From Amphiscolops sp. MND2022 (Eukaryota): a DNA stretch of 64,000 nt. The translations under genes were made by a program, and so were the position numbers. The notes under the pieces are model-generated. The model was not told the DNA's origin. It was given only the letters and a program-made list of their open reading frames with translations, and searched no databases. The stretch covers positions 1,674,001 through 1,738,000 of the forward strand of contig OZ076409.1 of NCBI GenBank assembly GCA_964187785.1, read 5' to 3'. The stretch's first letter is position 1, and every line of letters begins with the position of its first letter. Of this stretch, positions 26,824 to 64,000 are shown piece after piece.

Positions 26824-26869
26824 AAATTCGACGTTTCGTCAACTTCTGTTGACATTATCAAGAAAATCT
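26824..26869 (-). ncRNA. Minimal type I hammerhead ribozyme in the Penelope 3' pLTR
   Basis: UUGAUAA-U-GUCAAC(AGAA)GUUGAC-GAAAC-GUC; U3:A8 covariant core; PLE pLTRs are known to carry such motifs. Confidence 0.7.
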
Positions 26870-26938
26870 GAAAAATAGCAAACATTAAACAAATTTCATC
26901 AGTGCATCATCAAAAAAGCAGAAACAAAGAACATCAAT

Positions 26939-28320: not shown

Positions 28321-28421
28321 GTATTCCTCTATTCCTCTGCGTGTATTTTAAATTGATGTTCTTTGTTTCTGCTTTTTTTGATGATGCACTGATGAAATTT
28401 GTTTAATGTTTGCTATTTTTC

Positions 28422-28467
28422 AGATTTCCTTGATAATGTCAACAGAAGTTGACGAAACGTCGAATTT
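28422..28467 (+). ncRNA. Hammerhead ribozyme copy in the inverted pLTR
   Basis: Same core; predicted cleavage after C28461. Confidence 0.68.
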
Positions 28468-28601
28468 ATGAAGTTTTTGTTCTGCCACTCTTTTCTCGAA
28501 AATAATTTGTTCTAGATTTGGAATCAAAAATAAATTTTATTTATTTAAATTATTTTTAATTAAATTATTTATTGTACAACCCTGGGTGCGTTTGTTGCTA
28601 G

Positions 28602-28674
28602 ATTCGCCCAGGTTCCAGTGACGTTCGAAGAAGTGCAGGTTGGGCACGAGATCACGACAGAGGACCTCAATCTG
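28602..28674 (+). pseudogene. Duplicated 5' 73 bp of the IDH3G exon with its splice acceptor
   Basis: Same sequence as 30019-30091, then runs into antisense Penelope RT sequence. Confidence 0.88.
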
Positions 28675-34309: not shown

Positions 34310-36277
34310 TTGGTCTTACAAGCACCGCGATCCAAATTAAGGATAACGTCATCGAAATACAACAAAAAGTAACAAAACAAAGGTAGCTCTATTCAACAGC
34401 ATCAAAGAATTTAAGGCAAGTATCGTTCTGCAAAGTTTTCGGCCTGCGTTTGTGATCTTCAACGGTGCTTAAGTGAACTTCATGCCTGCTTGGCTACAGT
34501 ACCAGATTCTTACACAGGAGACTTGCAACTGGATCGATCAATGGCTTCATCTGCTGTTTTAGTTTCACTTCGGTTTTCGATCGAAGTTCTTCGGCGCAGC
34601 GGAGAAACTGGTGTCTCAGGGTTAGATCCAATAATCAAAACCTCTTGAACAGGACTCACTATGGCAGTGTCAGGCCTTAACGTTGGCGAGTTATCTTCTG
34701 TCTGTTTCAGTAAGGATTTCATCAGGGTCTCCATGCGAGGCATCATTGAAGACGTAGCCAGGATGGAGTTTGGCTGGGCTGTCGGGCACGTTCGACACAG
34801 CTTGCCGCTGCTATCACGACTCTTTTTGAAATGCATCATGGTTGTTTCCAGAGCTTGCAAGCTCTTAACCATTATTTTCTTCGGGCAGTTTCCTTGATCA
34901 AACAATGCTCCTTGCAATCAGCGCGTAGTTTTGACCCTAGAATGGCGTTTATGATGTTGTTTAAGGTGCGTGGTAAGTCTCCGGACGGTGCGTTCCAGGT
35001 TGTTTCATTTTTTCTTCGGTATCCCTCGTATGCACTATATACGCTCTCGTACCTGGGCGGCTGCTTTGATCCATTGGTGCACTCGAGCCAAGTCCAGATA
35101 GTGTAAGCACTCCTTCGCAGGCTATATCGGCGGGTCACAGCCATACTAAAGGTGAATGGTAAAATGTTTTGAAACCAAACGTCTTGGGTAAACGGCCACT
35201 TGGCTTGATGCATTTGGTTCCTTGGTTTGATTTTTTTGAAGCGAAACGTTATAGGTAAATGGTCACATAGCTCAACACCATTTGGTCGGAAACGCATGAC
35301 ACTTCGCCGAAGTTATTGTTATAACGTGGCCAGTTATAATCACATACCCCTAGTGGCTTAAATGCAGGAGCGAAACGAAGCATTGCGACGTGTGATTTGG
35401 CCTTGCCTCAATGTTGCCACTTTGTGAAGACAGCGGTGCAACGGAGCCACTGAACAGGTTTATGCTTTACATTTAATAACGTTTTTCCATTCTCGAACAT
35501 TCCGTTAAAAATTTCAATTCTGTTTTGGTCTTTATTAGGATGTTTTTTGCCAATGCTTGAGTTGGAATGCACTTGGTTGAATTAGTTGTCATTTGACGTG
35601 AAAATATTAATACAAACGACTCAAGGAAACAATTTAGACAATTGACTCTAAGCTTAGTGAATTGTATACAAGGATTGCAATACCAATATCAATACTACAA
35701 TACCAATACTTAAAGGGTCACAACCAATATCAATACAGTTTTTTTTCAATACCAATTCTCAAGGTCTCATTACCAATCCTTTCTATTTGAATTTCATATT
35801 TGGTGAAAACCCATAGCTCCAAAAACCCATACCTCCGAATGTGGCGCTACATAAAGTCCTTCAGAAGTTGAATTGATGTTTGGTCATATATAAGTCTGTC
35901 AAAAAATAAGTTTCATAACTCTAATTTGTCGTTTTGCCCACTAACGGTTAGCAAAAGTCTCAAAAATTGACAAATTATTGGCCTGTTTTTGGTCAAAACC
36001 AATACCCACCATGGAAGTGGCCCAATACTCAATACCGATACCCTTTTGGTCAATACCAATACCCTTTTTCTGAAGTATTGAAATTCCCGCTTGTAATCAT
36101 ACCCAATGGGCTCTTTCCTGAATATGCTGGGATTTTGTATGAAGACATATTCAGCAGAGGCATGGGGGCTAGCACTCAGGTTAGTTCTAATTATCTTTCG
36201 TTGGCTTTCAGGTGGATTCGACGGTCCGAGGGAACCGATAAGGGACAAGGGATACCCTCAACGTCCAGAGGGGCTGC
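34310..36277 (+). repeat. ~2-kb composite segment, inverted copy of 56439-58393
   Basis: Collinear reverse-complement similarity with substitutions and indels; contains a degenerate ORF with a DHLPI (APE-like) motif and caatac-repeat blocks. Confidence 0.9.
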
Positions 36278-37633: not shown

Positions 37634-38886
37634 ATGGAGAATTGTAGTATTTGTAATTTGAATTATAAAAAAACCTTCAAATCCGATCATTATAAATCAG
37701 TAAAACATCTTGAAAAATTAAATCAATATTAATGTAAAAATGTAATTCATATATGCATATCTCAAATAAGTTCATTCATCTAAATTCAGATAATCATAAA
37801 AACCATCAAAATAAAGTATGGTGTGAAGATTGTAGTAAATATAAATCTGATACAACAAGACATTTCCAAAGTGAAATTCACCTAAGAAATAAACAAAATA
37901 ACCAGCCGAATCAACAAAATATCTTTAGTCTAGATACGCAAAGCGCCTTCGGTACACAAAGCGCCTCCGGTACACAAAGTGCCTCCGGTACGCAATGCGC
38001 CTTCGGTACACAAACTGCCTCCGGTACACAGCACCCTTCGGTACAATTCGATAATAATGTAGAATTAATTGTTAATGCAAATACATACATTAAACTGAAA
38101 GTAAATCCAACTGAAAATTTCGAATGTCATATAAATGATTAATTAAGTAAAAGGTACTTTTCCCGATTTAAATATCAATTGAAATGTTTAGCTAAGTTTT
38201 CAAAAACAGTTGATGGAGAAGAAGAAGTGTTTATTAGATGGGAAAAATCAGATCTAATGTATAATCACACGCAGAGCGCCTTCGGTACTAATGAGAATGT
38301 TCATAATTCCTTAGTACAGAAACTAGATGATGAACAACTAGAAGGATCAGGTTTTGTTTTTCAGTGTATTGTCGATGTTATATTAGAAATACATAAAGTT
38401 ATTGATATTCAAGCTTCTTCGTGGGTTGAGTTGCCAGAAAAATATAAGAATAACAAATCAATTGTAAATACAAAAAATATTGCTCAATTTTGTTTTCTAT
38501 GGTGTATTTTAGCTCATTTATATCCCGTTGAGGATCATAAAAATAGAACATCAAATTATTCAATGCATTTTAATGAATTCAACATAGAAGGATTAGAACT
38601 CCCTATGAAAGTTAAAGATATTCCCAAGTTTGAAAATTTGAATACGCAAAGCGCCTTTGGTATCGGACTCCGTATAAATGTATTTGAATTAAACGGAACA
38701 GTTTTAACACCAATTGATATTAATAAAATTTACTTACAACCACAAATAGATTTTCTATTAAATCAAAATCCATATTGTCTAATTACAAAGTTGCATTGTT
38801 TAATAAATAAAGACTCGCATATAAAATATGTATGTAGAAGATGTCCAACAGCATTCAGTTCAGAACCGGTTCTACTTGACCATATA
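37634..38886 (+). pseudogene. Protein-primed DNA polymerase B, N-terminal part with three zinc fingers
   Basis: CSIC..H..SVKH, CKKC..H.NSDNH, CEDC..HFQSEIH; EGSGFVF, SWVELP, CFLWCILAHLYP, CRRC; interrupted at LDHI by the BEL element. Confidence 0.85.
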
Positions 38887-39243
38887 TGTTGACAACTACT
38901 TTATTAGCGAATTAAGTTGGATTGATTTCAAGCGTTCGTAGCACAGCGGTAACGTGTATGGCCAATACGCGACCGGCGTGTGTTCGAACCCCGGTATTGA
39001 CCGACCTTTGTGAAACCGTAAAAAATGATTTTTCAAATATTAGTCGAAATTTGCTATCTCGAACTTGTTTAATAATCTTTGTAGACAACTTTATGTTCAT
39101 TTCTCAGTTTTGTTAATTTGTACAATTTAAACGTTTTGTCATTGAGACCGACAGTACATTGAGAAAGAGAGTGTTGCCTTTTTCCTATTTTTCGAATAGA
39201 AGAAACGAGATATAACTTTTGCCAAAGAATTATGTTTCTTTTA
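38887..39243 (+). repeat. BEL 5' LTR
   Basis: TGTTGACAAC start; direct repeat of 47627-47985 with many substitutions. Confidence 0.92.
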
Positions 39244-40991: not shown

Positions 40992-43900
40992 ATGGCTGAC
41001 CCTATACCAGAAAAGATCCAGAAACTGTTCGATGGTCGTCTAAAGGCTTAAACAAAATTGAAAAAAGTTGAAAACGAGATCACTGACGCCGTGAACAACT
41101 CCGATCATTGTGTCCTCGTGGAAGGGTTAGTGACGTATTGAGATGAATTAATGACCAAAGCACTTTCGAAAAATGAACACCTTTTGGAACTTGCGAAAAA
41201 ATCCAACGACCCGGCGTCAACATCTGCCGACCTGGAGAAGTGGTTACATGAGACAACTGTGAACAATAACGAAATTCTGAAAAGGGCTAGAGAATACATC
41301 GACGAACAACCTCAGTCAGAAAAACTATCACAATACTCTCAAAAAACCGCCACTGTCAGGACTAAATCCAGCAAAACATCCAGCTCTAAGTTGTCAAAGA
41401 CGTCGAGTCAGCGGCAACCTGACCTGATCATTGCCCAACAACGTCAAGAGGAGATCGAAAAACAGAATGAAGCATCTTCTCTACGTTTGGCGAAACAGAA
41501 ACAAGAGCTAGAGCTTAAATGACAGGAAATAGAAGGTAAAAAAATGAGAGAAGAACAAGAACGACTCCGAAAACATCAGGAACGACTTCGCAAAGAACAA
41601 GAGTTGAGAGTACTGGAACTAGAAGAAGAAAACAGAAAGCGACTTGCTGAAGCTACTTTGGCAGAATTGGAGCTCCAAGAGGACCTGTCAGACCTCCACG
41701 TTGACTTCACGACACGTTGTCACGATTAAGTGCCGCAAGTCACAGGGCGGAGACAGAGCGAATCAACGAGTGGATTAACAATTCACCAAATGTATTCGAA
41801 AAGAACATTCAGTCTACCAGCGAAGCCCCAGTAACTTCAGCTCCAAATGAAACACTAAATACCTACACCCTAGTTCCTCCCCCGCAAACTGTAGAGAACC
41901 AAGCGATCGCGGAGGCAGTCATGACAACAACCGGAGCTACAGGTGGCCTGATACCAACTGCTAGTGTTCCACAGACACTTCCAAGTACTCTACCCGTACC
42001 AATTGCCCTGCACGTCGCACCTCCAATTAGTTCTCCGGCCGAAGTTTCTGCGGTTTCGGTACCTTCTCTCACCGTACCCAAGATGAGTTCAACTACATCA
42101 ACCCAAGTCATTAACACTCCGAACCAGGCAACCCCGCTGCAACCGTCCGTACTTTTCAACCTCACAACGTCAGTACCTGTCAGCTACATGCTTCCTAACG
42201 TGTCCGCATGGACATTTCCCACAGTAACCACCAACGCTCCCACGCAACTAAGAACACCTTTACAAACGAGCCAACCGACGATTACCGCCACAACGACAAC
42301 ATCAGTTGGAAGAACCCCAGTACCCACGATGCCCGTAATTCCTGTAACTCATGGAGGGACAGTCTTCTACGTACCACCGTCAGCGGTTACAGTTCCGACC
42401 TCAATTCCTACAAATGTTCAGCCGTCGTCATCATTCCCTTGTGCAACTGCAGCACCATCTATACCATCAGGATCGAGTGCGATACTGCAACCAAGCCCTA
42501 CACACTTCAGTCTACAAGATGTTGCGCAACTACTAGCATCAACAAAGAAAGACCACCTACCAGAGTGGCACGAATGGTTCGGACAATTCAAGAGCGCCAT
42601 TGACTCGGCCCAACTGTCAGATGATGTCAAGCTGACTTATCTGAAAACTCTGGTAACTGGAAAGGCCCGAGTAGCATTAGCAGAATTCGCCTACTGCTGA
42701 GCTATGTACAAGGACGCCCTCAAGACTCCTGAGCGGAAGTTCGGCCAACCACAGGCGGTAGTGACAGCTTTCGTGGACAAACTAGATAACGTTCCTCATG
42801 TGAAGATGCATAACAGCGAAAGCATCATAAGCTACTCCGCAAGCGTTAGCTCATTGGTTAGGGTATTCCGTTCGCTTAATTATGTCCAAGACTTGTCTAG
42901 CGCATTCCTACTGGGTCAAGCAGTGCAGAAGCTTCCGCCGAATATGGAAGAAGCATGGTCAATGCATTCCGTGAAGCGCAGCCTAGACAGACCGACCTTG
43001 ATTGATTTCAATGATTGGCTGAAGGATAAAGCTGAAGCCCACGAACCTATGGAGACGGCTGCAGGCAAAGTCAAAATCGACGAAAACGTTTCTAACATCG
43101 CAACGAAGACAACGACAACTACCAAAGTTTTTGCTGCAACGACCTCAACGAACCGAGCGAATGCCCAAGTGAAATCGAAACCCAGAAACATGCCGCCAAA
43201 TTGTGTGGCTTGCAAAGAGAAACACCCTCTGTGGAGATGCCCCGTGTTCAGAAACAAAACACCCACAGAGAGAGCAAAACTAGTTGCCGACCACAAGCTT
43301 TAATTCTCTTGTTTTTGAGCTAATCATTCGTTCAGACAGTGCCCCAGATCCGCAAATGCTCTAAAGAAGGTTGTGAAAGCTCCCACAACACAATTCTTCA
43401 CGGTGCCGAATCAATGTTTAAGAAAAATCTCGAAACACCGAATAGAAAAAACCCCAAAACTTCGACTTGTATTGGAACGACAAATATGAACAACCACGTT
43501 GCAGAGAGCTCAGGCATGCCTTCAGTTGTAGATGTTAAAGGACTCCTGCAAATAACCGAAGTAGACTTACACTCCAACGACCAGTCAGAAAGGGTCTTAG
43601 CACTCTGTGATTCAGCCTGCAGCCACTCTTGTGTTTCATCAAGGCTAGCTGACAAACTGAATGCAAAGGACACACCGTTGAAGTTGACAGTACATGGTAT
43701 CAACTGCCATCAAGTTGTAAACACTCAAACGGTGGAGCTAAAGATGACGCCCTGTTCAATCGGGTGGCTCTTGCTCCTCCTTTGCAATCAAATTATATGT
43801 GAGAGACTATCTTCAAGTTGGAACCGATGTTATAGACGTAGAATCACTGGAAACAATGTACTCCTATTTAGAACCAATCAATTCCTTTGAAGAAGTACAG

Positions 43901-46900
43901 CTATGCTGATGTTGACACGATCCTGGGTCAGGGCGTGTTCCACTTTTCCCGCCCACTGGAGTGTTTCGACTCCGACCGTAAAAATACTCCAGTCGGCGTC
44001 CGTTTATCGTTGGGCTGGGTATTTAGTGGACCGCTGCCGTCGACCTCAGGGTTGTTCTGAACCTGTTTCAAAGCTGTAACAACAAACAAAAACACGGGTT
44101 CTGAACTAGCCGAACAACTCCGCAGCTGGTATGACATAGAATCATACGGAGCTTTTAAGTAAGTAGACTACCGTTCCGCAACCGATGCGAGGGCGGAGAA
44201 AATACTTGAGGCAACCACATACCATGACGGGTCCCGATATCAAGTTGGTATGTTGTGGGCAGAAGACGAAAGTTATTTGCCGAATAATTACTTTTCAGCC
44301 CTTGTTCAACTGAAGTCGTCTTGGGAAAGACGCGGAGGTGAAAGAACGTTACACTCAGACCATCAGAGGTGATTTTTCGAAAGGATACATTGTTGAAGTG
44401 AACAAATTGGACTGTTTCAAGATGAATAATGCTCGTGAGTGGTATTTACCGCACCACCCAGTAGCCCATCCATACAAACCGGGTAAAGTTCGAAGTGTGT
44501 TGAACGGCGCTGCCAAGTTTCAGGGCCAGTCCCTTGATAACGCACTTTTGACTGGACCGGACTTACTACAAAGCCTTATCCATATCCTATTCCGATTTCG
44601 ACAAAATCCACATGCCGTGTCCGCCGACATTGAGGGAATGTTCCTTCAAGTTGAAGTTATTCCAGAAGACAGACCGTCACTTCGATTCTTGTGGCGTGAA
44701 GACCCAGCCTCCGAAATAGCTGTTTACCAATATGTTCGACAGATATTCGGGTCTAAAGACTCGCCAACATGTGCGAACTACGCCTTGAGGCGGACAACAA
44801 CAGACAACAAAGCAACGGTTCCCAAAGCCGCCAGAAGTGTCCTAAGTAACATTTACATGGACGACTACCTGGAATCGAGTTTAACTGTTGACGAGGCGAC
44901 CCGGAAAGCCAAAGATCTGGTGACATTACTTTCGCTCGGAGGTTTCAAGTTAACAAAGTTTGTTTCAAACGTTCCGTCGATCCCAGCAAAGCTCGAACCC
45001 GGCTCCAACGCGCCAACAGAGGTAAAAGAACATTCAAATACCGAAGGTTCTTCACACGTGTTAGGACTGAAGAGGAACCTTTCCACCGACACCCTAGTTA
45101 TCAGCTGAGGAACGAAACCCAATGTGAAGCCGACCGTAACCCATAGGGTTGTACTAAGTTTGGTATCCGCACAGTACGACCCCAATGGTCTTGTCGCCCC
45201 TTACACGGTAAAGGCTCGACAACTGCTCAAGGACATCTGGCGATTGAATAGACAGCAATGGGATGACGAGCTCCAACGGATCTTGTCACAATGTTCCTCG
45301 AGTGGAGTAAAGATCTTCCAACCCTGAGTGACATCACAATTCGTCGAGCGTATTTCGTTGGAGAGACTGAAGCACTGGAGTTACATTTGTTCGGAGACAG
45401 CTCACAGGAGGTGTTCAACGCGGTAGCGTTTCTCCGAGCAAAAGTCACAGCCAAAGAGAGAGCGTCAACAACGGAATTAGCCTTTGTCTTTGGAAAAACC
45501 AGAGTAGCACCCATGAAAGCCTTGACAATTCCGAAGCTTGAACTTCAAGCCTCATTACTCGCCTCAAGGCAAAGAGAGGAAGCTCTACGTGCACCTATTG
45601 TGAAAATAGACAAAGTTTTCATGTGGACAGATAGCACCACGGTTCTACAATGGATTCACTCAATGAAAAAGCAACCAGTCTTCGTAGCGAACCGCGTTGC
45701 GGAGATACTAGAGCTCACAACAACCGACGAGTGGAACTACGTTCAATCTTGTGATAATCCCGCTGATGCAGGCACTCGAGGACTCTCAGCGACGGCATTA
45801 CCAAACAGCATCTGGCTGTAAGGACCAGATTTCTTGAAAACATCTGATTGGCCTTTTAGGCTCTTAGGCCGTCGGAACGCACGTCGTTCAAAGTTAAACA
45901 ACGTAATGACACTTCTAGTGAAGAAAAGCCATCCTTTGGATACGCGACCGTTCTCAACGCCAATGCTGACATTAACACATCAACTTTCGAGTGGCAGAAG
46001 TACAGCTCTTACGAGAAACTCCTGCGTGTTGCCGCCTACGTGTTGCATCTTGCGTCTTCTACCAAAGAACGAGGCTTTCCGCTCGATTACAGGTGCCATT
46101 ACCGACCCGAGTGAACTCGAAAATGCCCAAATGAAATTATTCTATATTACGCAATCCGAATCTTTTCCCACAGAGACAAGGAACTTACGGAAAAATTCCC
46201 CCTTCAGTAGTTCCTCAAAAATCCCCTTTCACCGGACCACAAGGATCACTTCGGGCAACAGGTAGAACAAAGAAACTCGATGTTTCAAGTTTTGACGCCA
46301 AACCTCCAGTTTTACTCGATAGTCATCATCCAGTCACACGCTTGTTCCTCGAAAACTTACACCAGATCCATTGCCATCAGGGCGTGGACTACTTGAGGGC
46401 GTTGGTGCAGCAACAGTTCGCCATCGTCAAGCTTAGAACCGCTGTGAGAACAATTGTTATGCGATGTGTAACTTGTCGTAAACGTCGGGCTGAGATCCTC
46501 AGTCCGATGATGGCTTACCTACCGCGAGGAAGACCAGCCTTTAAGGAGCCCCCCTTCTCTAATACTGGCGTTGACTACTTTGGTCCGTTCTACGTTTCCG
46601 TTAGGAGGTCGACAGAAAAACGATGGGGATTCCTTTTTACTTGCCTGACTACGAGAGCTGTCCATTTCGAAGTCGTGCCGTCAATGGACACTTGCAGCTG
46701 TATAATGGGAATAGAAAAGTTCAACGCCCATCGGGGTATCCCAACGGAACAAATTTCATTGCCAGTGACAAAGAACTCCTCCAGAACATTTCAAACTGGA
46801 ACCAGCATATTTTGACCGAGGCCCTCGTCAAGGAACGTATCTCGTGGACGTTTGACACACCTAGTGCACCACACTATGATGGTGTTTGGGAACGCGTCGT

Positions 46901-47436
46901 AAGGAGTTTCAAAAACGTTTTTTACGCTGTTCTTGGAGACCGACGCTTATTCGACGAGATCCTGATAACAACATTTTGCCTTGTTGAGCAAAGCTTGATT
47001 GCACGACCACTGGTACCAGCCAGCTCTGATGCTACCAATTTGGATGCTCTGACCCCAAATCATTTCTTGTTGGGAACTGCGTGTTCCGTTTTACCGTCGC
47101 ATCAGCGAAATAGACCATCGCAAGCGCTACGTACATACACAAGCTTATTCTGATGCTATCTGGAATCGATGGTTGAAAGAATACGTGCCCTCAGTTAACA
47201 AGCGTTCTAAGTGACCAAGTCAACCAAAAAGACAACTTAAAACCTTAAACCTAGTCTGGATAAGCGAACCGTCGAGTCCAAGAGGACATTATCCACTAGC
47301 TCGCGTGACAAAGTTGAACTTCGGCAGAGATGCCATTGCACGTTCTGCCGAACTGAAGACCAACACCGGACGTATTGTTCGCCCCGTCGTACAGCCGTCC
47401 CCAGTCCTTCCCCTTCCCGAAGCCGAACCCTTTTAG
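40992..47436 (+). pseudogene. BEL/Pao gag-pol (gag Cys-His knuckles, protease, RT, RNase H, integrase)
   Basis: EWFGQFKSAID..KLTYLKTL, CVACKEKHPLWRC, LCDSAC, WYLPHHPV, ADIEGMF, YMDD, LHLFGDSS, TIPKLEL, NPAD, GVDYFGP, LTPNHFL; multiple stops and frameshifts. Confidence 0.95.
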
Positions 47437-47626
47437 TTGTATCACCGGATACTTAACTCCGATGTCATGAAACAAAATTATTCTCAAAAGTAGTATGAGC
47501 CATGTATATACTTGTTTGTTTCTCAACATGTAAACATAAAACCCATGTGATGCGTTCTCATGATACCGAAACAATTTTTACCTGTTTTGGCAAAAAAAGT
47601 GTTCACATCTTCTTGGGCCCGGAGGA

Positions 47627-47985
47627 TGTTGACAACTAATTTATTATCAAAATAAATTGGATTGATTTCAAGCGTCCGTAGCACTGCGGTAACGTGTATG
47701 GACGATACTCCACCGGCGTGGGTTCGAACGCCGGTATTGACCGACCTTTGTGAAACCGTAAAATAGGTAAAAATTGAAATATTAGTCGAAAGTTGCTATC
47801 TCGAAAATAATTAATAATATTTGTAAACAACTCTATGTTCATTTCTCAGTTTTGTATATTTGTACAAATTAAACGCCTTGTCATTGAGACCGATAATACA
47901 TTGAGAAATAGAGTATTGCCTTTTTCCTATTTTTCAAATAGAAGAAACGAGATATAACTTTCGCCAGAGAATTATAATTCTTTCA
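47627..47985 (+). repeat. BEL 3' LTR
   Basis: TG...CA ends, follows the PPT. Confidence 0.93.
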
Positions 47986-47990
47986 ATATA

Positions 47991-50636
47991 GATCGTTGTC
48001 AAAAACAAAAACCAACTATAATCACATTCAGTTGGAGCATCCCTTAAAGTTCGAAGATTATCAAATGAACGTTCCTGTACCAATAGGAGTATATGCTGAT
48101 TTTGAATGCATTATTCAACCCACTCAAAACCCTCAAAACCCTCAAAATGACCCGAAAGTATTATTTAAACAAATTCCAATTGCAGTAGGATTTTATCTAA
48201 TTTCACCATTTGGAAATCAATAATACTCATACTTTGGAGTAGATTGTGTAACATGGTTTGTAAATGAAATGCTATTTCTAGACAAAATTTCTAGTAACTA
48301 TTTTAAAAGAAATATAGAATTAGAAATAACTCCTCAAGAAGAAGAATCATTTCAACAACCCACCATATGTTGGCTCTGTTAAGAACCAGTAATAGACAAA
48401 GTAAGAGGTCATGATCATCTGACAGGAAAATACAGAGGAGCAGCTCATAATATATGTAATATAAATTGTAAACAAAAGTCATCAAAGTTTGTTCCCATAT
48501 TTTCCCAAAACTTTTCTGGGTAAGATTGTTATATCATAATTGAAGAACCCTTAACACAAGTTTACAAAATGTGTTATGAACCAAAAATAATTCCAAAGTC
48601 AATGGAAAATTACGTATCAATTCAAGTAGGTTGTTTAAGGTTTTTAGACTTATATCGTTTTCTAAGTACTGGTTTCAGTAAATTAGTTGAGAGTATGAAC
48701 AGTTTCCCACTAATGGATTCCAACAATTTTTAAGATGAATTTTTTAAAAAGAAATTGGCTTATCCTTATGAATACTTAGCGCATAGTAGTTTCCAAGAAT
48801 CAATAAATATAACAAAAGAAGACTTCTGGTCAACACTAAAACAAACAACTCCAACAGATAAAGAAATTAACAGAACACAAGAAATTATAAAATAGTTTAA
48901 CGTAAAAAGGGACAAAAATTAACTACGTTCTATTTCCAAATGGATGTTTTACAATTAGCAGATGTATTCGAAAACTTTGTGGAAAGTTCTACACGAAAAT
49001 ATAATGTTAATCCTTGGTATAGTTACTCTCTATCTGGGTATACATGGAAAGCTGGTTCGAAGTTGACTAATATTAAATTAGATTATATAAAAGATAAAGA
49101 ATTCTTATTACTACTTGAAAATAATATCCGTGGAGAAATTCCAAGTGTAATGGGTGATCGCTACGTGGAATGCGCCTCCGGCATTCAATCAGATGAAAAT
49201 ACAAAACTTTCATACATTGATGCAAATTATCTATATGGATGGGCAATGAGTCAACCTCTTCCTACTGGCGAATTCGGAAAACTATATTTTTTAGAAGAGT
49301 ATGAACTAGAACAAATAGTAGAAGGTTTGAGATTTATTACAGATGATAATGAATATGACTACTTTATAGAATGTGATTTAGAATATCCAGCTGAATTTAA
49401 AGAAAAAACCGAAAACTTTTCACTTTGTCCTTATCAAACAAAAGCAGATCCTAGTCTTTTCTCAGAATATATGAATAGTGTGAAACAACCCAATTACAAA
49501 CCAACTTAGAAGCTAATATGTGACCTAACAAACAAACGAAACTATATGATACACTACAGGGTGTTCAAGTTTTACACTAAAATGGGGATGAAAGTTACGA
49601 AGATACGTACGATTTACAGATTCAAACAATCATCATGGTTGGGTAAATATAATGATCATAATACTCAGAAAAAAACAACAAACTTTGAAAAGGATCTTTG
49701 TAAATTAATGAACAATGCTTTCTCTGGTAAGACGATGGAAATGTAAAAGAAAGAACAAGTATAGAGATTATCCCTCATTCTAAATGTGATCAAATAATAA
49801 AAAGACAATAGAAGTTAAGCTTCAAAGGAGTATCACAACATTATAACGATTTTAGCTTATACAAATATGACAAAGAAAAGATAAAATTTGATAAACCATT
49901 TTACTTGGTTTTCTCTGTTTTAGAACTTAGTAAATTGTTAATGTATGAGTTTTATTATCACAAATTACAACCATGCTACAATTTTAATGTTAAACTGCAT
50001 TATATGGATACAGAACTTTTTATCTTATCAATGAAAACTACAAACTTTTCAAAGGAAATGAAATATTTCAAAGATGATTTGGATTTTAGTGAACTGAATA
50101 AACCCATGGGTTATACGATATAACAAAGAAAAAAGTTATAGGTAAAATGAAAATAGAAACATCACCAATTATTGAATTAGACAACTTCGTAGCTTTGAGA
50201 TCTAAATCATATTCTTTTAGTTATAAAGAAATGCAAAGCACAAATCCAAATTTAAAACAAAAAGGAATACAACATACACCAATCCTCAACCAATTTATAA
50301 ATTCATTATTTGATTCTCAAACACCAACTGCAACTAATTATTCTATCCGTTCAAATGCTCACTAAAAACTGTTCAGAAGCAAGATAAGCTAACTTTGAAT
50401 CCTTTTGATGATAAAAGAGTTTACGTAAATCCAATACAAAGATTATCATGGGATAAACACACCCAGAAAAGTGATTGATCTTGTATATTTGTTTGAAATT
50501 AAGTGGTTTGTATTATAAAGAACTGAGTGATGGATTGAGTCATGAAGAAATTTGTTTATGTGTTTGGTATTTAAAAGAAAAACTAAGTCATTAACAGCTT
50601 TTAAATCTGATAAGTGATCGAGCTCATCTTTTATAA
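47991..50636 (+). pseudogene. pPolB C-terminal part: exonuclease, endonuclease VII-like insert and polymerase
   Basis: VYADFEC, CWLC...HDHLTGKYRGAAHNICN, YPYEY, YIDANYLYGWAM, KLMNNAF.GK, YMDT, GKMKIE, DDKR; many disablements; frame resumes DRCQKQKPT after the TSD. Confidence 0.92.
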
Positions 50637-51660: not shown

Positions 51661-52150
51661 CAGGTGAGGGCCATGTCTATATAGTTAAGCTCAGAGAATT
51701 AGTAATTTGTTTAAAATTCGTCAATAGAATAATCCCCACCTAATTTTCTTCCCCGTCGATAGATAAATCCCCACACTCTTATGTGAGGAAAGCGCAAATG
51801 TATCTAAAGGAATAAAATCTTAACTAATCCAATCACTCCAATTGACATGGATGTGGCTGTCCTGACCCATAATACGGTTTGAGATACTTTTTTTTTGATG
51901 TTATTCCCGGTTTGGTTTACTACTTTGCTATTCAGATAACTTTTAAAATCGATCTATAAAATTTTTCACTTTTGGGAGAAACGTCAAAAACAAAAATAAC
52001 GTCTAAGAAAACGGGAAAACGTCTGAATCTTTAGACACCATTCCAGAAAATTGATATAAATTCAGAGGTTATTCCCGTTTTTAATTCAGACGTTATTCCA
52101 TAGACGTTATTCCCACCCGCCAAACTTGAATCATATATGGGCCAACCAAC

Positions 52151-55100
52151 TTGAAGACCTTGACGTCGAAAATGTTCTTGCAAATCTCGACTCCCGAAGT
52201 CCATTTGCTTGATGTCCAGTCGAGCCTCATCTTCTCGGGTTGTGGACTTGTTATCAAAGCGTTCACTTTCGAACGGCTGAAGATTCGGTGTTCGATTAAT
52301 AATATGTAGCATACCTCGTCCACCAGTTTGGCCATTTCGTTACTGATTTCATTTTGTCAGATGTGAATGTATCTCCTTTCAAATAATGCAACGCATGCAA
52401 AAGGGTAAATTTTTGCCCTGCGTACAGTAAGAATTTTCTCTTGCGGTCCCACCCGTACCTGAGAGCTTTTCTCAGACTCCGATAAGTCAAAGGTAAAACA
52501 TTGGAACGATAGGGCGCGAAACCAACTTGATGACCTTTTTTCAGAGGCCGGCTCCAGTGAATTTTGTTGTCTTTTAACCAATTCGGTTATAAGATGGTTT
52601 CGTTTCGTTTTCAACAAATTTCTTTTTTGTATTAACTCATCTATGGCAATTTGAAATGTTGATATTGTTATGGCATCGTTTTAATGAATTGGTTAGGTCA
52701 TTTTTTTGAGCGGGCCGAATAATGTGGCTGGTCATCAGGCATCAAGATATTTAGCCCACCACCTTTGATCGGTAATGAAAACACTTTGCGAAGACTTTTG
52801 ATCAATGCTAGTTTCGATAACAAATCATCGCTGATAGTTTATGTTTTCTGAAGTTAAAAATAGTTATTCGGAGTGGTCCTAGTGATGAATATTGTCTTAT
52901 GTTGAAATACTTGTGACTAGGTTTTGTAAACGGATTGTGGAGACACTTGGGAATGATCGGCCAGCTTTATATTCACTCTAACATTTTCATTTGCTTTGTC
53001 GACACTGCGATGAAGAAAACACATGCAGTGTCGCTACCTTTGATCGAGCCGAGTACTCTGTGTCCATCCAATAAATCAATATCTTGATCCGCTAAAACTT
53101 TCCATGCAGTCTCTATTGAGATTGTTTTGGGACAAATAGATCACAGCGTACCACTTCTGGCATGTATTGGGAAGAGCTACTTTTTTATCAGTGGTAGATT
53201 GCGATCCCAAACATAGCCGTAGCCAGCGGGTCTTCCTGTGTACTACCTTCTTCTGACAAAATGGTTTGCTGTCTTTGAATAGGTTGGAAGGACATGAATT
53301 GAATATACGTTGAATGTGAATTTTGAAGAGATGTGCTAGGTGAAGGACATATTGTTTTTATGTTTTTCAAGACAAAATTCCCGTTTGAAGCATTGAATTT
53401 TAGCATCGATGAGAGCTATAACGTTATTGCAGGCGGTTTATGGTACAAGAAAGGATTGATTGATTCAGTGGTTGCAAATTTTCTGGCAAGTAACGCTAAT
53501 GTTTTACTGATTTCGAGAAGGGTGTTTTGGAGACGATCAGTATTCTGTGCTATTCGTCTCCATTCAAGCCTGAAGGTCCACGTGATCCTTGTGGTTTCAC
53601 AGCAGAGCGTTTGATTGCACCGCAATATATCTTGTCTGTCAAAAACAGTAGGATGGTATGATAGCGTTCCTTCATAACAATTTCTCTCTGACTTTGACTC
53701 ATCGTCTGGTTTTGACTTCGGGTGTTTCTGTTCAAGTATGTTGATGACCGAATTGCCTTCAACGATGTGCTTTGTTGATAAAGGTCCTCCTGTTGCGTCT
53801 TCCGACAGGAATCTAATAACATGGGAGACCTTGCTTTTCCACATGTGATTGTCAAATGCTTTTAACTCGTTGAATAGTCTGTGATAATCCTCTTCTATGT
53901 CAGACTCTTCGTCTGAATTTATAGTTACGTCTACATCTGATCTGCTCTGGAATATCAGTTTTGCAGGTTGCTTCAGGTACTTCATTTTAGAAGCTCTGAG
54001 AGGAAAATCGTCGTTTTCAGAATCTAGGTTTTCGTTATTAGATGCGTGGACTCCTATAGACTGGGTTGTTTTGGACCCCGAAGGTTGCAAATCTTGTATT
54101 TCGTTGAAATCTGACCTTGGGTTTGTCATTGTAGATGCAGTTTTATTTGATTTAACATCTTTCAAAGTTGCCTCAAATTTACTATCCATTTCTTCTCTCA
54201 TTTTCTCGATTTTGCTATCATTCTTTTGTTCCATTATTTGGGTCCATACTTGAATTTCACTGTTGATTAAGCTGTGATCAGCTAATTGATTTAAAGAGCT
54301 GTTTTCACCAAAACCTTCTTGAAGATTGACGTTAGAATTAGTTAAAGTCTCATTACCTGGATTAGGTGTTTCTACCTGTGTTCCGTTCAATTCCCTGTCA
54401 GGAGATGGTGTTGCCAGTCTCCTGGACCTTCTGTTTCTCTTATTTCCCATCTTGCTCAAGCGAAAAGGTGTATTTTGGTTGTTGGGGAAGAATTTGAATT
54501 GTCTTGAAGTATTCCAAACTCCAAAAGATATTCCAAAGAAATGGTACAAATGTTGAAAGAAACTGCTTTTACAGTTTAGTTAGAGTGATGAATATGGCAA
54601 CTGATCACGATGAGAGTCAAAATTAGATAGAATGTCTATGCTAAAGTTATTTTACTTCAGAAAATTGGGAGCGTGACACTCCTTTTTAGAGGAATCACGC
54701 TAGCCTGGGAAGCAAAAATAGAATAGCATCATCATTACGTCAGGGTATTTATATCACATTCAAAACTGATGAATAGGTCCAATAAGACCCTGGAAAACTG
54801 CATTAGAAACTGTCAAGCGCATACTCGGAAATATAATTGAAATGTATAACGTCACAGCTCATTTTGAATGGTTATCATGCTAAAAACGCACACTGACGAG
54901 TATACGTTACTTATCAAACCGCGGGATACCGCATAGTGGTAATCCGCAAGGTGACGAGTAATCATCAGACATCGAACCGTAGGATGCCGCAAAGTTCAAT
55001 TATAAAAAACGCATGATTGTGATTATTCAAGAAAGCTCAAAACGTATAATGACGCATAGTCATCAGCACAAATGTTCATTTGATGGTGTTGAGTTCAAAA

Positions 55101-55563
55101 TTGATATCATTACGTAATCTATTAGTCATGCAATGATCTTTCTAGGTAAATTGTCTCAAGTTTTAATGCATTTTAGCCCTCCTTTGATGCATAGAGCAAA
55201 CTAATTACCAAAAGGGTTGTTTAAGACATTTGTTTAGCATCTTTCAAAATGACAAATCAAATAAATATCCCGCGAACAAAATGTTTATACAAGTTTTCAA
55301 GAAAGAATTGGGTGGTTAGTGTCAGTTTTAATCGTCTGGGTGAGAGCTCTTTCTGTTCTTCTTCAATCACTGCTGCACTTCGGGCCCAGCACAGCTGACA
55401 GGCTGAGACATAGTCTTTTTCTGGATGTTTTGTTTGGCCTTTGCTACAGTGCACTCGCTTCATCGAATAATTGGTCGATCAAGTTCCCATCTAATGAACA
55501 TGTCTAGACGTGTACCGAGTATTTCGTTGACTAAGTTATCTTGGAGTCCTCTCTGTTAGAAGT
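52151..55563 (-). mobile_element. Degenerate CRE-like non-LTR retrotransposon (RT plus restriction-like endonuclease), split by a solo LTR
   Basis: LFDEASAL.QR..RL|FNELKAF..M..KV, GPSG, SEEGSTQEDPLA, SSWFRAL, HALH, DEARLDI...FDVKVF. Confidence 0.8.
53880..55410 (-). mobile_element. Gypsy-type solo LTR (1531 bp) containing a gag-N-terminus-like ORF
   Basis: TG...CA ends; exact 5-bp TSD TAGTC (53875-53879, 55411-55415); removing it restores the LINE peptide SRKRL-FNELK. Confidence 0.85.
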
Positions 55564-56438: not shown

Positions 56439-58393
56439 GCAGCCCCTCAGGACGTTGAGGGTATCCCTTATCCCTTATCACTTCCCTCGGACCGTCGAAT
56501 CCTCGGACCTGAAAGCCAACGAAAGATAATTAGAACTAACCTGAGTGCTAGCCCCCATGCCTCTGCTGAATATGTCTTCATACAAAATCCCAGCATATTC
56601 AGGAAAGAGCCCATTGGGTATGATTACAAGCGGGAATTTCAATACTTCAGAAAAAGGGTATTGGTATTGACCAAAAGGGTATTGGTATTGAGTATTGGGT
56701 CACTACCAGGGTGGGGTATTGGTTTTGACCAAAAACAGGCCAATAATTTGTCAATTTTTGAGACTTTTGCTAACCGTTAGTGGGCAAAACGACAAATTAG
56801 AGTTATGAAACCTATTTTTTGAAGACTTATATATGACCAAACTTCAATTCAATATTTCTGGAGAATTTTATGTAGCGCCACTTTCGGAGGTATGGGTTTT
56901 TGGAGCTATGGGTTGCACCAAATATGAAATTCAAATTGAAAGGATTAGTAAGGAGACATTAGGGATTGGTATTGAAAAAAACTGTATTGATATTGGTTGT
57001 GACCCTTTAAGTATTGGTATTGTGGTATTGATATTGGTATTGCAATCCTTGTATACATTTCACTAAGCTTAGAGTCAATTGTCTAAATTTTTTCCTTGAG
57101 TCGTTTGTTTTAATATTTTCACGTCAAATGACAACAAATTCAACCAAGTGCATTCCAACTCAAGCATTGGCAAAAAACATCCTAATAAAGACCAAAACAG
57201 AATTGAAATTTTTAACGGAATGTTCGAGAATGGAAAAACGTTATTAAATGTAAAGCATAAACCTTTTCAGTGGCTCCGTTGCACCGCTGTCTTCACAAAG
57301 TGGCAACATTGAGGCAAGGCCAAATCACACGTCGCAATGCTTCGTTTCGCTCCTGCATTTAAGCCACTAGGGGTATGTGATTATAACTGGCCACGTTATA
57401 ACAATAACTTCGGCAAAGTGTCATGCGTTTCCGACCAAATGGTGTTGAGCCATGTGACCATTTACCTATAACGTTTCGCTTCAAAAAAATCAAACCAAGG
57501 AACCAAATGCATCAAGCCAAGTGGCCGTTTACCCAAGACGTTTGGTTTCAAAACATTTTACCATTCACCTTTAGTATGGCTGTGACCCGCCGATATAGCC
57601 TGCGAAGGAGTGCTTACACTATCTGGACTTGGCTCGAGTGCACCAATGGATCAAAGCAGCCGCCCAGGTACGACAGCCTAATTAGTGCATACGAGGGATA
57701 CCGAAGAAAAATGAAACAACCTGGAACGCACCGTACGGAGACTTACCACGCACCTTAAACAACATCATGAACGCCATTCTAGGGTCAAAACTACGCGCTG
57801 ATTGCAAGGAGCATTGTTTGATCAAGGAAACTGCCCGAAAAAATAATGGTTAAGAGCTTGCAAGCTCTGGAAACAACCATGATGCATTTCAAAAAGAGTC
57901 GTGATAGCAGCGGCAAGCTGTGTCGAACGTGCCCGACAGCCGACAAGCCGCTATTAATTGATGTCTCGCATGGAGACCCTGATGAAATCCTTACTGAAAC
58001 AGACAGAAGAAAACTTGCCAACGTTAAGGCCTGACACTGCCATTGTATGTCCTGTTCAAGAGTTTTTGATTATTGGATCTAACCCTGAGATACCAGTTTC
58101 TTCGCTGCGCCGAAGCACTTCGATCGAAAACCGAAGTGAAACTAAAACAGCAGATGAAGTCATTGATCGATCCAGTTGCAAGTCTCATGTGTAAGAATCT
58201 GGTACTGTAGCCAAGCAGGCGTGAAGTTCACGTAAGCACCGTTGAAGATCACCAACTCAGGCCGAAAACTTTGCAGAACGATGCTTGCCTTAAATTCTTT
58301 GATGCTGTTGAATAGAGCTATCTTTGTTTCGTTACTTTTGGTTGTATTTCGATGACGTTATCCTTAATTTGGATCGGGTGGTTGTAAGACCAG
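56439..58393 (-). repeat. Inverted copy of 34310-36277
   Basis: See partner feature. Confidence 0.9.
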
Positions 58394-58560: not shown

Positions 58561-60836
58561 TGTCACGACCCGCTCCCGGTCGTAATTTTACTTGCTGCTC
58601 AGGGATACCAGGATTCGGCAGAGGTCGCGGACAAGGGCAAAGTAAATACTTTTGAACCTTATTAAACTAATAAAAATTCTACTTACAGTACAGCTAAATA
58701 AGCGCGAATAATTTCCCAAATACGGAATTCAACGTAAACATTACGGAAGATTTTCAGAAATGACTTTAAACTAGCTAAAACTTCCGGTCTAATGTTTTCA
58801 CACGCAACACCGCTTTATTTCCGGTTTTATCTTCTGAGTTTTCCATTCCAATCTAAACACTAAATAATTTTACAAACGGGATCATTTTGGCGCTCCACAC
58901 TAAAATGAAAACGCAGAAACGACATTTAACTCCGAGATCCCAACGGAGTCCATAAGATCTAAAATGAAAGGACATACAAAAACAGAGTGGAAATGTATTC
59001 GAATACTAGAATAGTTGTTAAATATCCACTTAAAACCTTAGTTTAGTGAATTTAAGTAAATATTCACAACGCTATGACAGCGTCACTCAACTAGGCTAGC
59101 AACGGGTGTTTCTATTTTTACGGACCAATAGCGTCACTTGCCGGCGGAATTATCTAAACTCGCACCAGTAGAATTACGCTTGGTTGCCCCTAGCAACGCT
59201 TACTAGCTAAGAAAAGAGAATAAAATCGCCTACGCTCTCCGTTTTCACTCCGCTTGCTACCGCTGCTCAGCTATAAGCAATCTTAATACATACGGAGCAC
59301 TTACGGAGCAGATTGTAATATTGTATTCCGCCGCTTGGCTATAAGTAATCTTTATACATACGGAGCATCTACGAAACAATTCATGAAGTGGTAGTAATGA
59401 AAGAGTAGCTAAAACGGAAACCAAATAAGGGTTTTTCGAATCGACGCATTCTAACATTTTCAGAAATAACTTTACCCAAAAAAGCTGTACTGTAAGAAAG
59501 AATTGAAAGTTCACAGTGTATTTTAATCCTGCATCGTAAAGGTGATACGTTAGCGCCACGTTGCACGAGACTCCCTTTTAAAAGATTACCACCGAATATT
59601 ATATCATTACGTTGTGTCGACGTAGTTAAAAGGACAACGTGGGGATAACGTTTGGTGCTAGTTGTGCTAAATAATCCTTCCAATTAATGCAGGTAGAGTT
59701 GGAAATGCCATGAAGCTCCCTTTGTACTGTGAACAACTCTCATTTCGATGTTTTTGTACTAATGTTGAAAAAACAACATCAGAAGTTTATACCTCGTGAT
59801 TTTCGTTACAATTATCATTGTGTTTGCATTTTGTGCAGTTTTGTATTAAATAAGTATTTTTGTCATGTATAATAATGGTTCTAAAGTGTTCTAGTGAAAT
59901 CCTTTCAGCATCATTTATCCTCCCTAATAACTAGACATTTTCATTCACTAAAATTCATAATTCCGTTTCATTTCCGTCGTCATTTTTGAGTGTCATTCTT
60001 TTGCATCGAATCTCAATTTCCTAACTTGGAAGCTGACTAATTGATCACGTCGGCGTGCCCACGCTGATGGAAATGTTAGCTAGACTTCTATTTTGCCGCA
60101 ATTTTGAAGATCAAACAGGAAATGGATTGCCTGAACAAAAATGATTTCAACAAAGTTTTACGGAACACTGACGCAACTAGGAATTTTGATACCTGATTTT
60201 ATGACGCGGGACTGAAATAATATGAATCATTAGCGCTTTTTGTTGAACAAACTTGCTTTTACGATACCTAGGAATTTTTAGGTGAGGAACAAATGATGCT
60301 GGGAAGGTATAAACATGTAGAACATACATGTAAGTTAGTTAGTCTTTTAATCTGCTTAGTAACAACTTGTTCTGTTCCGTTTTCAAAACGCGTTAGAAAA
60401 ACCCAAATCTTTGAAGAATTTAAATATTCCAGAGAATAAATCCTCTCTCTCTCTAAAATGACTACTAGAAGTCAGAAAAAGAAAGCAGTAGCCGAGCTAG
60501 TGTCAGGAGACTTTGAAGCTTCTTTAGCTGAGAACAATCCTACTGAAAATCTAACAGCTAGTTCCAGTAAAAACCCCAGACTTGAGCTTGAAAACCTGGA
60601 GGAGATGAAAACCACTCTAAGGAAAGAGATCATGTCTGATTTAACGAAAATACTTGCTGAAAATCAAAAAGAAATGCTTAAGCTGACAGCACCGTCAAAC
60701 AAGAAGCAAACTATTCACATGAATACTCTAGACTCAGACTCCGAACCAGAGAATGTTTCCGTAGCGAGGACGTCTACTCCAATTAAAATCCACACTGCGA
60801 CTAACTCTAAAACGACACCAGTGAATATTCGTAACA
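58561..60836 (+). repeat. Gypsy 5' LTR (~2.3 kb, inferred)
   Basis: TGTCACG...CGTAACA inverted termini followed directly by PBS-like TGGTGACAGGAGT; the 3' LTR is outside the window. Confidence 0.65.
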
Positions 60837-61867
60837 TGGTGACAGGAGTCCTCAATGAATCTACCAACCAACCCGCGAAAAGACCGAAACAACAACGCGC
60901 ACCCAACGAACAGACAAAAGACCGTCCTTCAACATCTAAGATTCTGTTCGCGCCACAACCGCAAACATTTCCAGCTACCAGTCTACTTCCGATGCCGAAA
61001 GCACTCACTGCTTTGCTCCCAGTCTTCGATGGTAAGTCCGAAAAGTTTGAACTTTTTGAGGACCTATTCCGAAATAATATCAAAATGTACCCTCACTTAA
61101 CCGAGATACAAAAAATCAACTACTTCCATTTACTCCTACGAGGAAACGCACTACAAGCGTATTGCAATCTAGACGACACTAAAAAAGACAACCTAGAAGA
61201 AGTCATAACGGCATTCAAACGTCGCTTTGGCGATTTCCAATCATCCGCTAAAGCGAGATGCGAGTGGGATGCACTACACTTCGACCCCACTAAACAAAAG
61301 CTACACGAATTTCTTGACGCGTTACAAAAAACCGCAAAAGAAGCGTTTGGCTCAGAAGCCCAGAAGTTCATCGACAAAGCCATATACGCTAAAATGCCGG
61401 ACCACGTAAAAAAGATCCTTAACAGAGCTTACCTAGAAGATAAGCCCTATAATGACATTGTTTTACACCTTGAACGCGAAATGCGACTCAACGGACTAGG
61501 AGCGCCTGATGAAACCACCCTAGTCCCCCTCAACACTGTGGACGCAGAAGTGGCGGATGATAAGAAAGAACAACAGCAGAGAGGTTACTGTTTCCACTGT
61601 GGGAAATACGGCCATTACAAGGCACAATGCCGTCGCCTCCGCAAAGACAGGTACTACGCCACAAAAACAAGTACCACCGACACCAAACAAACAGATACAG
61701 CTAAACCCAAATGTGATACTTGTGGAAAAATGCACAAAACAGAAAATTGCTGGGACGGAGCCAACGCGGCAAATGACCCCAGGAAACGCAAACGTGAGTT
61801 CAACATTCCAACAAACAAGATTGACGAACAACCCGTACCTGCAACGTCGTCCCAAGCAAAAAACTGA
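60458..61867 (+). CDS. Ty3/Gypsy gag
   Basis: LPVFDGKSEKFELFE capsid-like start; CFHCGKYGHYKAQC and CDTCGKMHKTENC knuckles; intact 469 aa. Confidence 0.9.
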   Translation: MTTRSQKKKAVAELVSGDFEASLAENNPTENLTASSSKNPRLELENLEEMKTTLRKEIMSDLTKILAENQKEMLKLTAPSNKKQTIHMNTLDSDSEPENVSVARTSTPIKIHTATNSKTTPVNIRNMVTGVLNESTNQPAKRPKQQRAPNEQTKDRPSTSKILFAPQPQTFPATSLLPMPKALTALLPVFDGKSEKFELFEDLFRNNIKMYPHLTEIQKINYFHLLLRGNALQAYCNLDDTKKDNLEEVITAFKRRFGDFQSSAKARCEWDALHFDPTKQKLHEFLDALQKTAKEAFGSEAQKFIDKAIYAKMPDHVKKILNRAYLEDKPYNDIVLHLEREMRLNGLGAPDETTLVPLNTVDAEVADDKKEQQQRGYCFHCGKYGHYKAQCRRLRKDRYYATKTSTTDTKQTDTAKPKCDTCGKMHKTENCWDGANAANDPRKRKREFNIPTNKIDEQPVPATSSQAKN

Positions 61868-64000
61868 AGTCGCCGCGCCTACGCTTCGGGGAAAAAGTAG
61901 ACGCGAGGGCGTACACCATCGAAGACCCCCCCCCCAAATAGGTACGAAGAAGATTTTTTCACAGAGTGTAATGAAGAACCAACTCAGGACTGGCAACGCC
62001 GATGGAACGTAGGCATGATACTCCGACACAATGCCAGGCATCCAGAGGACCCAACACCACTACCTCAATGGATAACAGAGTCACCAGATAACTACGCAAC
62101 ACTCAAGCGACCCTTACCAGAATCAAAAACCGAACGTATCTACATCTGTGATAGAGACTACAGATGCGATCCCTGGGATGAACCAACCATTTATGATACT
62201 AACAAACTCTCCTTCAAATTACAAGTCTCAAACCCCCAGGCTCAATCCACAGAAATTATGGACCTACCATCACCACCATCGCCAATTCTCAAAAGAACAA
62301 CACCATCCCCAACAGTACCCGTCACCATCACGTCCACACCAATAGACGCTGAGAACATCATCTGCGTCGAGGACAAAACCATATGGGCGCATCAAGAAAA
62401 ACGAAAACTAGAAAATGCTGATCCTTCAGTGACCCCTCCAAAAACCGCGCCCGTCACAACACTAATGAATGACGACGTAGAAATCACGGAATGTCCCTCA
62501 AAATTGCCTGAAGATCTAGACACCATCAAGGAATTCATCCAACATGACAAAGACGACAACTACATCCCGTTAATGTCTTCCATCGCGCTCAAGAAGAAAA
62601 AACAAATGCTTTTCCTACCAGTCGAATTCAACACGGTCAAAATCGACGCCTTAGTCGACTCAGGTGCGTACATTAACGCTATTAGCGAAAGGGACGCTGA
62701 AAAACTCCGACAGCATGCCAGTCAGTGCATCGTCAATAAGGCACCCCCACCCCCTTTCAAAGTGCAGTATGCCAACGCCGAATTAGAACAACCACTTGCC
62801 ACGTACACCCTACGTTTCAAAATAGGGGATTACACTTTTGAAGAAACATTCATCATCATGAATCAAACGTCATTCCCTATAATTGGATTAGCGTTCCTAC
62901 TAAGCATGCCGCAATCCTTGACACGGCACAAGGAACCATTGACTTTCCTAAGATCCAAATCACGATGGCGCTCACAGACGAAAGACAAAAGTGCAATCCC
63001 AAACCCATCACGATAAAGACCGAAGCCAAGCATACAATCCCAGCGCACTCTACCCGAATCATCTACGCAACAATCCCTGTGAGTATCGAACACTCAATAA
63101 CGGGCACTATACAACCCCTACCACAATTCGATGAATGCGCGAAGGTAATAGTAGCTCCAGCGATTACAACAGCCAGAGACAAAAAGACACCAATAAAAAT
63201 CGCCAACACTACGGATTTCCCATACACAATAGCCACCAATACCAAAATGACAGAACTACAAATCCTGAAACCCGAAGAAACGAAAATGATCCGTCCAGTT
63301 GACATAGCCGCCCTGAATCTTCTCACCGAACATGAAGATGTGGTTACGTACATCAATGCACTAATGCAAGTAGAGCGGCCCGACGACAATGAAGAGAAAT
63401 TCTGGTTTCCAACCCCAGAACACCCCGGCAACGAACAGGAACATTCGCCCATACAAAAGCGAATCTTGAAAGAATTGCGAGACCTTGCCGAGCTAGAAAA
63501 ATTTGACCAAACCGAAAACGAAGAGTCTCGAAACAAATTTCTATCCATGTTCAAATGGACAGATTCACAGATTGCGAACAAAGACCGTGAAAACCTCGAG
63601 GATACCATTGTCGAATTCAACGACATCTTCGCTCGACACCGGCTAGACATAGGGATGAACACACAATTCAAAGTCAGCCTAACACCACAAGATGACAAAC
63701 CAGTCTACACACAGAGCCTACCCGTCCCAATCAACCTCAAAGAAGACCTGACCGTGGAACTGGCCCTCATGCATCGATACGGAATCATCACGACACTCCC
63801 CTTCTCCAAGTATGCCAGTCCCATATTTGCACAACGGAAACCCAACGGCAAACTGAGACTACTGGTGGATCTGCGCAAAATCAACGCACTTATAGCAGAT
63901 GACTACATCAACAACAACCACACTGTCAGCACCCTCTCAGATGCGGCACAACACCTAGCAGGGAAAAAACTGTTCTGCAAGCTTGACTGCTCCCAGGCGT
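61858..64000 (+). pseudogene. Gypsy pol (protease, start of RT), truncated by the window end
   Basis: ALVDSGA protease; YASPIFAQRKPNGKLRLLVDLRKIN...KLDCSQA RT; single-base shifts in the C10 run (61926-61935) and near 62900. Confidence 0.9.

Follow-up and report, generated by a model that had tools for sequence, protein, structure and literature searches.

A solo LTR nested in a decayed LINE appears to encode the N-terminus of a Ty3/Gypsy-type Gag and reads into the flanking DNA, most likely by chance

The 64-kb window (the whole stretch of DNA that was analyzed) contains on its minus strand an old solo LTR of 1,531 bp, which is bounded by a target-site duplication (TSD) and nested in a decayed non-LTR retrotransposon (LINE). 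An ORF that starts within this LTR stays open to its end and continues into the LINE sequence beyond. A second Gypsy-type element with the same layout lies nearby on the plus strand. The features, given in window coordinates, are:

55411-55531, minus strand: upstream part of the decayed non-LTR retrotransposon, separated from the rest by the inserted LTR
55411-55415, minus strand: TSD GACTA, 5' copy
53880-55410, minus strand: solo LTR of a Ty3/Gypsy-type family, 1,531 bp, TG...CA
54746-54753, minus strand: TATA-like box, candidate LTR promoter, the sole match to TATA[AT]A[AT] in the LTR 5' of the ATG
54451-54720, minus strand: stretch free of ATG by count, candidate 5' leader
53880-54450, minus strand: predicted gag codons 1-190, with a basic MG-start motif, a disordered chain and one long predicted helix
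53416-53879, minus strand: read-through tail (154 codons and a stop) that ends short of the RT core; the last base of the LTR opens its first codon
53875-53879, minus strand: TSD GACTA, 3' copy
52150-53879, minus strand: downstream part of the same non-LTR retrotransposon (pre-RT, broken RT and C-terminal parts), with frame switches, stops and a deletion
58561-60836, plus strand: 5' LTR of the second family, 2,276 bp, same layout, with the first 126 predicted gag codons from 60458
60458-61867, plus strand: second family's Gag ORF, which spans the end of the LTR and the primer-binding site (PBS) as N/MVTG

Read on the minus strand, the solo LTR starts with TGTCTCAG at 55410 and ends with TTATCACA at 53880. 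It has the TG...CA ends of an LTR, and the 5-bp direct repeat GACTA flanks both ends as a TSD. Neither a PBS nor internal sequence follows it, and host DNA resumes on both sides. The ATG at 54450 opens a frame that occupies 571 nt of the LTR (190 codons plus 1 nt) and continues to a stop at 53418-53416, for a total of 344 aa; Pfam gives two matches to this ORF, both sub-threshold. The boundaries, the GACTA pair and the ORF were all re-read and agree with the initial annotation, which had described a TSD-bounded solo LTR with an ATG at 54450 and 190 codons open to the LTR end. The 270 nt of the candidate leader contain no ATG where 3.7 are expected (P ~0.025, for an interval picked post hoc), and poly(A) candidates are found in the LTR at 54656 and 54147. 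We also note a pyrimidine-rich run ending in CAG just past the TATA-like box (54719-54705, minus strand), which resembles a splice acceptor and might be relevant to splicing of the gag leader.

The DNA on either side of the LTR matches single-ORF RT proteins of 865-1157 aa along their length, with collinear C-terminal homology. From its motifs, including a putative restriction-like endonuclease motif, this LINE is presumably CRE-like. It resembles CRE-like single-ORF non-LTR retrotransposons in the match of its flanks to single-ORF RT proteins and differs from them in that the window copy is dead. A HMMER library search with the downstream flank (X placed at the stop) retrieved 51 relatives, and RVT_1 is present in all seven LINE relatives that were scanned. 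A profile built from 28 LINE relatives gives seven matches that run collinearly from 53868 to 52150 with several frame switches (best E 2e-17). The upstream flank gives no significant match by plain tblastn or hmmsearch; in an anchored frameshift-aware test, its positions ~55531-55414 match the part of the LINE protein that directly precedes the junction. This match scores 23.1, whereas the highest value among random window segments is 15.4 (0/300 reach 23.1). Both flanks thus belong to one LINE, and the LTR divides a single LINE ORF a short way upstream of the RT domain.

The ORF had been described as running in frame into LINE sequence. This holds for the first ~80 tail codons (53868-53629), after which the homology moves to another frame (53672-53535) and comes back near the end. 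A fusion to reverse transcriptase is ruled out: the reading frame ends short of the RT core, the start of the RT lacks ~84 LINE residues and the catalytic motif is lost. With the tail as query, none of 174 candidates scored in a search of longer proteins, and an Atlas search gave no usable match.

The LTR-coded ORF was searched against proteins predicted from public ENA contigs, and the structure of the element was tested at the protein level. This search yielded 316 relatives of 189-602 aa, of which the best 120, all from ENA contigs, were listed; nearly all of these align over only the first ~190 residues. What follows the junction divides them. Forty-eight of the best 120 have EDYH followed by MVTG or a close variant and run on toward Gag, and 29 of these 48 are at least 550 aa (full length is ~560 aa). 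Another 70 have other tails, almost always from unrelated flanks, and in the remaining two the junction is not recognisable. The tails of the 70 read-outs are 1-86 aa long (median 18) and mutually unrelated, except for one near-identical pair and one weak match. An LTR end of ..CAC A dictates that the codon which opens the tail begins with A; such a codon is possible for the first tail residue in 69/70 read-outs, and for positions 2 and 3 in 30/69 and 31/62. Two relatives, P0073 and P0107, have long non-standard tails past the junction (233 and 86 aa) and may be recombinants or nested insertions into other elements.

We then expect gag-type and read-out proteins to occur in near-identical pairs where they come from the 5' and 3' LTRs of one element. 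Fourteen pairs were chosen, each with one gag-type and one read-out protein from equally long contigs, and four proved unparsable. Over the LTR-coded part, eight of the ten evaluable pairs show 97.9-100% identity and two show 69%, against a median of 74% for the unpaired combinations (n=130), five of which reach at least 95%. The pattern is that expected of 5' and 3' LTRs, if the equal contig sizes reflect an origin from the same contig.

These observations support the proposal that the ORF in the solo LTR is an LTR-encoded N-terminus of Gag, as it would be in the 48 relatives that run on into Gag. The initial annotation had predicted that full-length relatives continue as H-M-V-T into gag, and H-M-V-T-G is indeed seen in full-length relatives with a CCHC knuckle and weak capsid matches. 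It had also proposed that a PBS after the LTR end would create an ATG, and in the gag-continuing relatives the protein accordingly reads MVTG at this point.

The full-length proteins combine the features of a Ty3/Gypsy Gag, a capsid of the Ty3/retroviral fold and a CCHC knuckle. The zf-CCHC domain scores above cut-off in four of the five full-length gags scanned, while Ty3_capsid and Retrotrans_gag match all five at E values (0.0009-0.03) that fall below the curated cut-offs, and a match to Ty3 Gag-Pol has an E value of 0.01. The AlphaFold model of the relative P0037 has a mean pLDDT of 51 and is helical at residues ~270-420; its LTR-coded part is of low confidence, except for one helix at 59-103. 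Retroviral capsids form the top rows of a Foldseek search with this model, the best at E 0.014, with no match at E <= 0.001.

The same layout is found in a second family within the window. The element at 58561-64000 (plus strand) is Gypsy-type, with a 469-aa gag, a protease ORF and an RT start, and runs off the window; a second LTR is absent from the 64-kb window. No integrase lies between its protease and the RT-like start, and the remainder is beyond the window. At its LTR end and PBS the sequence reads ..AAC A/TG GTG ACA. The claim that the solo LTR ends in the same phase as this element stands as to the phase; the last full codon there is AAC, not CAC. Its cluster of nine members comprises three that run into gag and six that read out, and one of these read-outs, from a contig that equals the window's in length, starts with Thr-Gly, as predicted by the element's TSD for the 3' LTR. 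The LTR of this element also contains two similar 51-nt repeats with TATA-like motifs at 59260 and 59328. The solo LTR had been assigned to a different family, and this assignment is sound, as the N-termini of the two window families can hardly be aligned and identity between their capsid halves is 35-39%.

A third family is represented by a metagenome contig (locus L002), where the junction reads H/MVTG with 129 codons upstream; this locus is known from its gag frame, not from LTR boundaries. Across the three families the N-termini are barely alignable, and the capsid halves are 35-44% identical. The scans for related loci gave 3/150 in metagenomes and 0/53 in prokaryote genomes, and none of five candidate stretches in viral contigs was confirmed. 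A scan with the PBS pattern gave three loci, none gag-related. The reverse complement of the PBS ends in CCA, and, as a guess, the PBS may match tRNA-Leu; no tRNA genes are found in the 64-kb window or in L002. Judged from these sequences, the LTR of this Ty3/Gypsy-type clade probably contains 126-193 codons of gag, which places the PBS inside gag.

Elsewhere the window contains several further repeats and ORFs. Two near-identical RT ORFs lie in tandem (26939-28228 and 28569-29645) within 26789-29919 on the minus strand, with 129-nt inverted arms; the first matches RVT_1 at E 1e-6, and we take the unit to be Penelope-like by its look, with a GIY-YIG-type end. A decayed BEL/Pao element at 41151-47153 (plus strand) is broken into several ORFs, in which DUF1759, RVT_1 and Peptidase_A17 are matched separately. 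A ~2-kb repeat is present in opposite orientations at 34328-36277 and 56439-58376, 20 kb apart and with 88-100% identity. Two related segments with ORFs, at 37753-39241 and 47626-49509 (plus strand), are ~90% identical; by their look we take these ORFs to be protein-primed DNA polymerase fragments of Polinton-like elements, and Pfam gives no match for the two that were scanned. A 300-aa ORF at 14589-15491 (minus strand) matches OTU protease weakly and below cut-off (E 2e-4).

The clade shares with Ty3/Gypsy elements (Metaviridae) the TG..CA LTR, the 5-bp TSD and the PBS directly after the LTR, as well as a CCHC knuckle and a capsid of Ty3/retroviral type in Gag, and, in the related window element, protease followed by RT. 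In the usual Ty3/Gypsy layout gag starts downstream of the PBS, whereas here 126-193 gag codons would precede the PBS, within the LTR. The gag start of Diaspora, for example, is placed 873 bp downstream of the PBS (PMC1142308).

A similar layout is known from Ty1, a member of a different superfamily, Ty1/copia, where the stretch between the GAG start and the PBS is U5. According to PMC7969010, Ty1 RNA has a 53-nt 5' UTR with the PBS after nt 88-94, so that GAG starts ~40 nt before the PBS. On that account the PBS is inside gag in both, and the segment upstream of it amounts to ~14 codons in Ty1 versus 126-193 here, about ten times longer. A literature search by literal phrase matching, with Repbase, GyDB and most subscription papers outside its scope, turned up no description of an LTR that contains so long a piece of gag. 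The accessible sections of PMC1142308, PMC3095310 and PMC11117352 hold no precedent for a long LTR-coded gag (that of PMC11117352 concerns pol overlapping the LTR), and those of PMC3601003, PMC9503155 and PMC11381356 do not address a gag start in the LTR. The curators of Repbase or GyDB may already know the layout.

Taken together, we favor the reading, with a probability of about 0.85, that the locus holds an old solo LTR from a Ty3/Gypsy-type clade whose gag starts deep in the LTR, and that the fusion to the LINE arose by chance and is non-functional. In a full element, the 5' LTR would provide the promoter, the leader, the ATG and ~190 codons, with the promoter position and translation from the LTR ATG both being putative. 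The LTR's last base and the tRNA primer-binding site would then encode MVTG, and the frame would enter the capsid and the zinc knuckle, as it does at the protein level. If the TATA-like box marks the transcription start, the strong-stop cDNA (R+U5) would be ~0.8 kb. The same coding DNA would be copied to the 3' LTR and persist in solo LTRs, so each insertion would leave a stop-free ORF start that reads into the adjacent DNA, of which the 70 read-outs are examples. Here the element inserted into the ORF of a non-LTR retrotransposon. Solo LTRs arise via LTR-LTR recombination (PMC7175516), and the single LTR with its TSD suggests that the interior was lost in this way. A chance phase match with a stop-poor LINE remnant would finally have produced the 154-codon tail.

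A wider role for the LTR is conceivable, if unlikely. It would act as a portable promoter-plus-N-terminus cassette, with transcription and translation at numerous solo and 3' LTRs, this locus being one expressed case. The products would be either raw material for new genes or truncated pieces of Gag that disturb particle assembly and keep copy number low. The parts of such a cassette would be the MG start with its basic patch, the long helix and the disordered linker. Transcription through the ends of solo and 3' LTRs depends on the position of the poly(A) site. A known LTR-derived new gene, murid D6Ertd527e, comes with expression and knock-out data, and its coding part stems mostly from repeat expansion (PMC9733328). 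There an LTR equips a new transcript with its promoter and 5' end, and the transcript may acquire coding capacity, as would be the case here; the window LTR differs in that it would bring a ready-made 190-codon ORF start and in being known from sequence alone.

It is very unlikely that Gag is instead translated from the junction ATG (MVTG), with the LTR frame an untranslated or separately regulated ORF that is in frame by chance. The junction Met is invariant in 37/37 aligned gags, yet it is forced by the CA of the LTR end and the PBS. The LTR part evolves faster than the capsid, is mostly predicted to be disordered and is not alignable between families. From the family of the solo LTR at 54 kb, 80 full gags were retrieved and 76 parsed, from a source collection that lists only open frames, such that intactness is over-represented. 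Mean identity among the 76 is 68% in the LTR part and 94% in the capsid, but 86% in the first 20 LTR-coded residues. They have 186-193 codons before MVTG, with length changes in whole codons only, and the LTR frame is open and in phase in three families. That the frames have diverged this far, yet are open and differ in length by whole codons, speaks for translation of the LTR part. The replacements in the N-terminus are somewhat more conservative than expected by mean BLOSUM score (-0.03 versus -0.26), while the conservative share of the 593 distinct replacements points in the opposite direction (0.31 versus 0.38 expected). A permissive myristoylation pattern fits 76/77 gags and its glycine is absent in the other two families; myristoylation of the Gag N-terminus is only a lead.

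Still less is to be said for an expressed and selected chimeric host gene, either young and de novo or domesticated, which we consider highly improbable. Such a gene would be in keeping with the 344-aa open frame, the candidate TATA box with its ATG-free leader, and the LINE protein homology that is kept over the first 80 tail codons. Its tail of 154 codons exceeds all 70 other tails seen (at most 86 aa, among the best 120 of 316 relatives). On the other hand, this tail is frameshifted relative to the LINE and lacks the catalytic domain, it recurs in none of the best 120 of 316 relatives, and the exact 344-aa protein is found on one contig. Its length is within chance for many LTR ends: read-outs of at least 154 codons occur at 1.7% of random window positions and strands, and therefore about one is expected per 60 LTR ends. 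The LTR part of this copy has itself drifted by ~10%: of 181 well-agreed positions, 18 carry a change private to it. With 0.054 stops per replacement, ~1 stop is expected from 18 changes and the frame would survive in ~1 in 3 cases, so the open frame needs no selection. The locus had been put forward as a route to new fusion proteins. Such a route exists as DNA, because 70 of the best 120 relatives are LTR read-outs; for the present fusion, with a frameshifted tail that stops short of the RT core, seen once and bearing no sign of selection, the suggestion is unlikely to hold. The LTR-LINE fusion is most likely a chance by-product and non-functional debris. Finally, it is hardly credible that the 1.5-kb piece is an element that was truncated, or that its TG..CA ends and the 5-bp repeat are both fortuitous. 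LINE homology breaks off and starts again precisely at its two ends, and 70 relatives diverge at the same 3' end, even though a second DNA copy is not found within the 64-kb window.

The preferred reading, an old solo LTR of a clade with its gag start deep in the LTR, gives the single LTR-LINE fusion little weight by itself. A third of gag in the LTR would be an unusual layout for transposon specialists, one that implies a long strong-stop cDNA, a PBS under coding constraint and a coding segment doubled at the ends of the element. Each solo or 3' LTR of the clade would yield a plausible ORF of ~190-350 aa without a Pfam match, which would inflate counts of orphan and de novo genes. The clade would thus offer a large natural set of ORFs with the same start and random tails, in which it may be tested how often such ORFs become expressed or selected.
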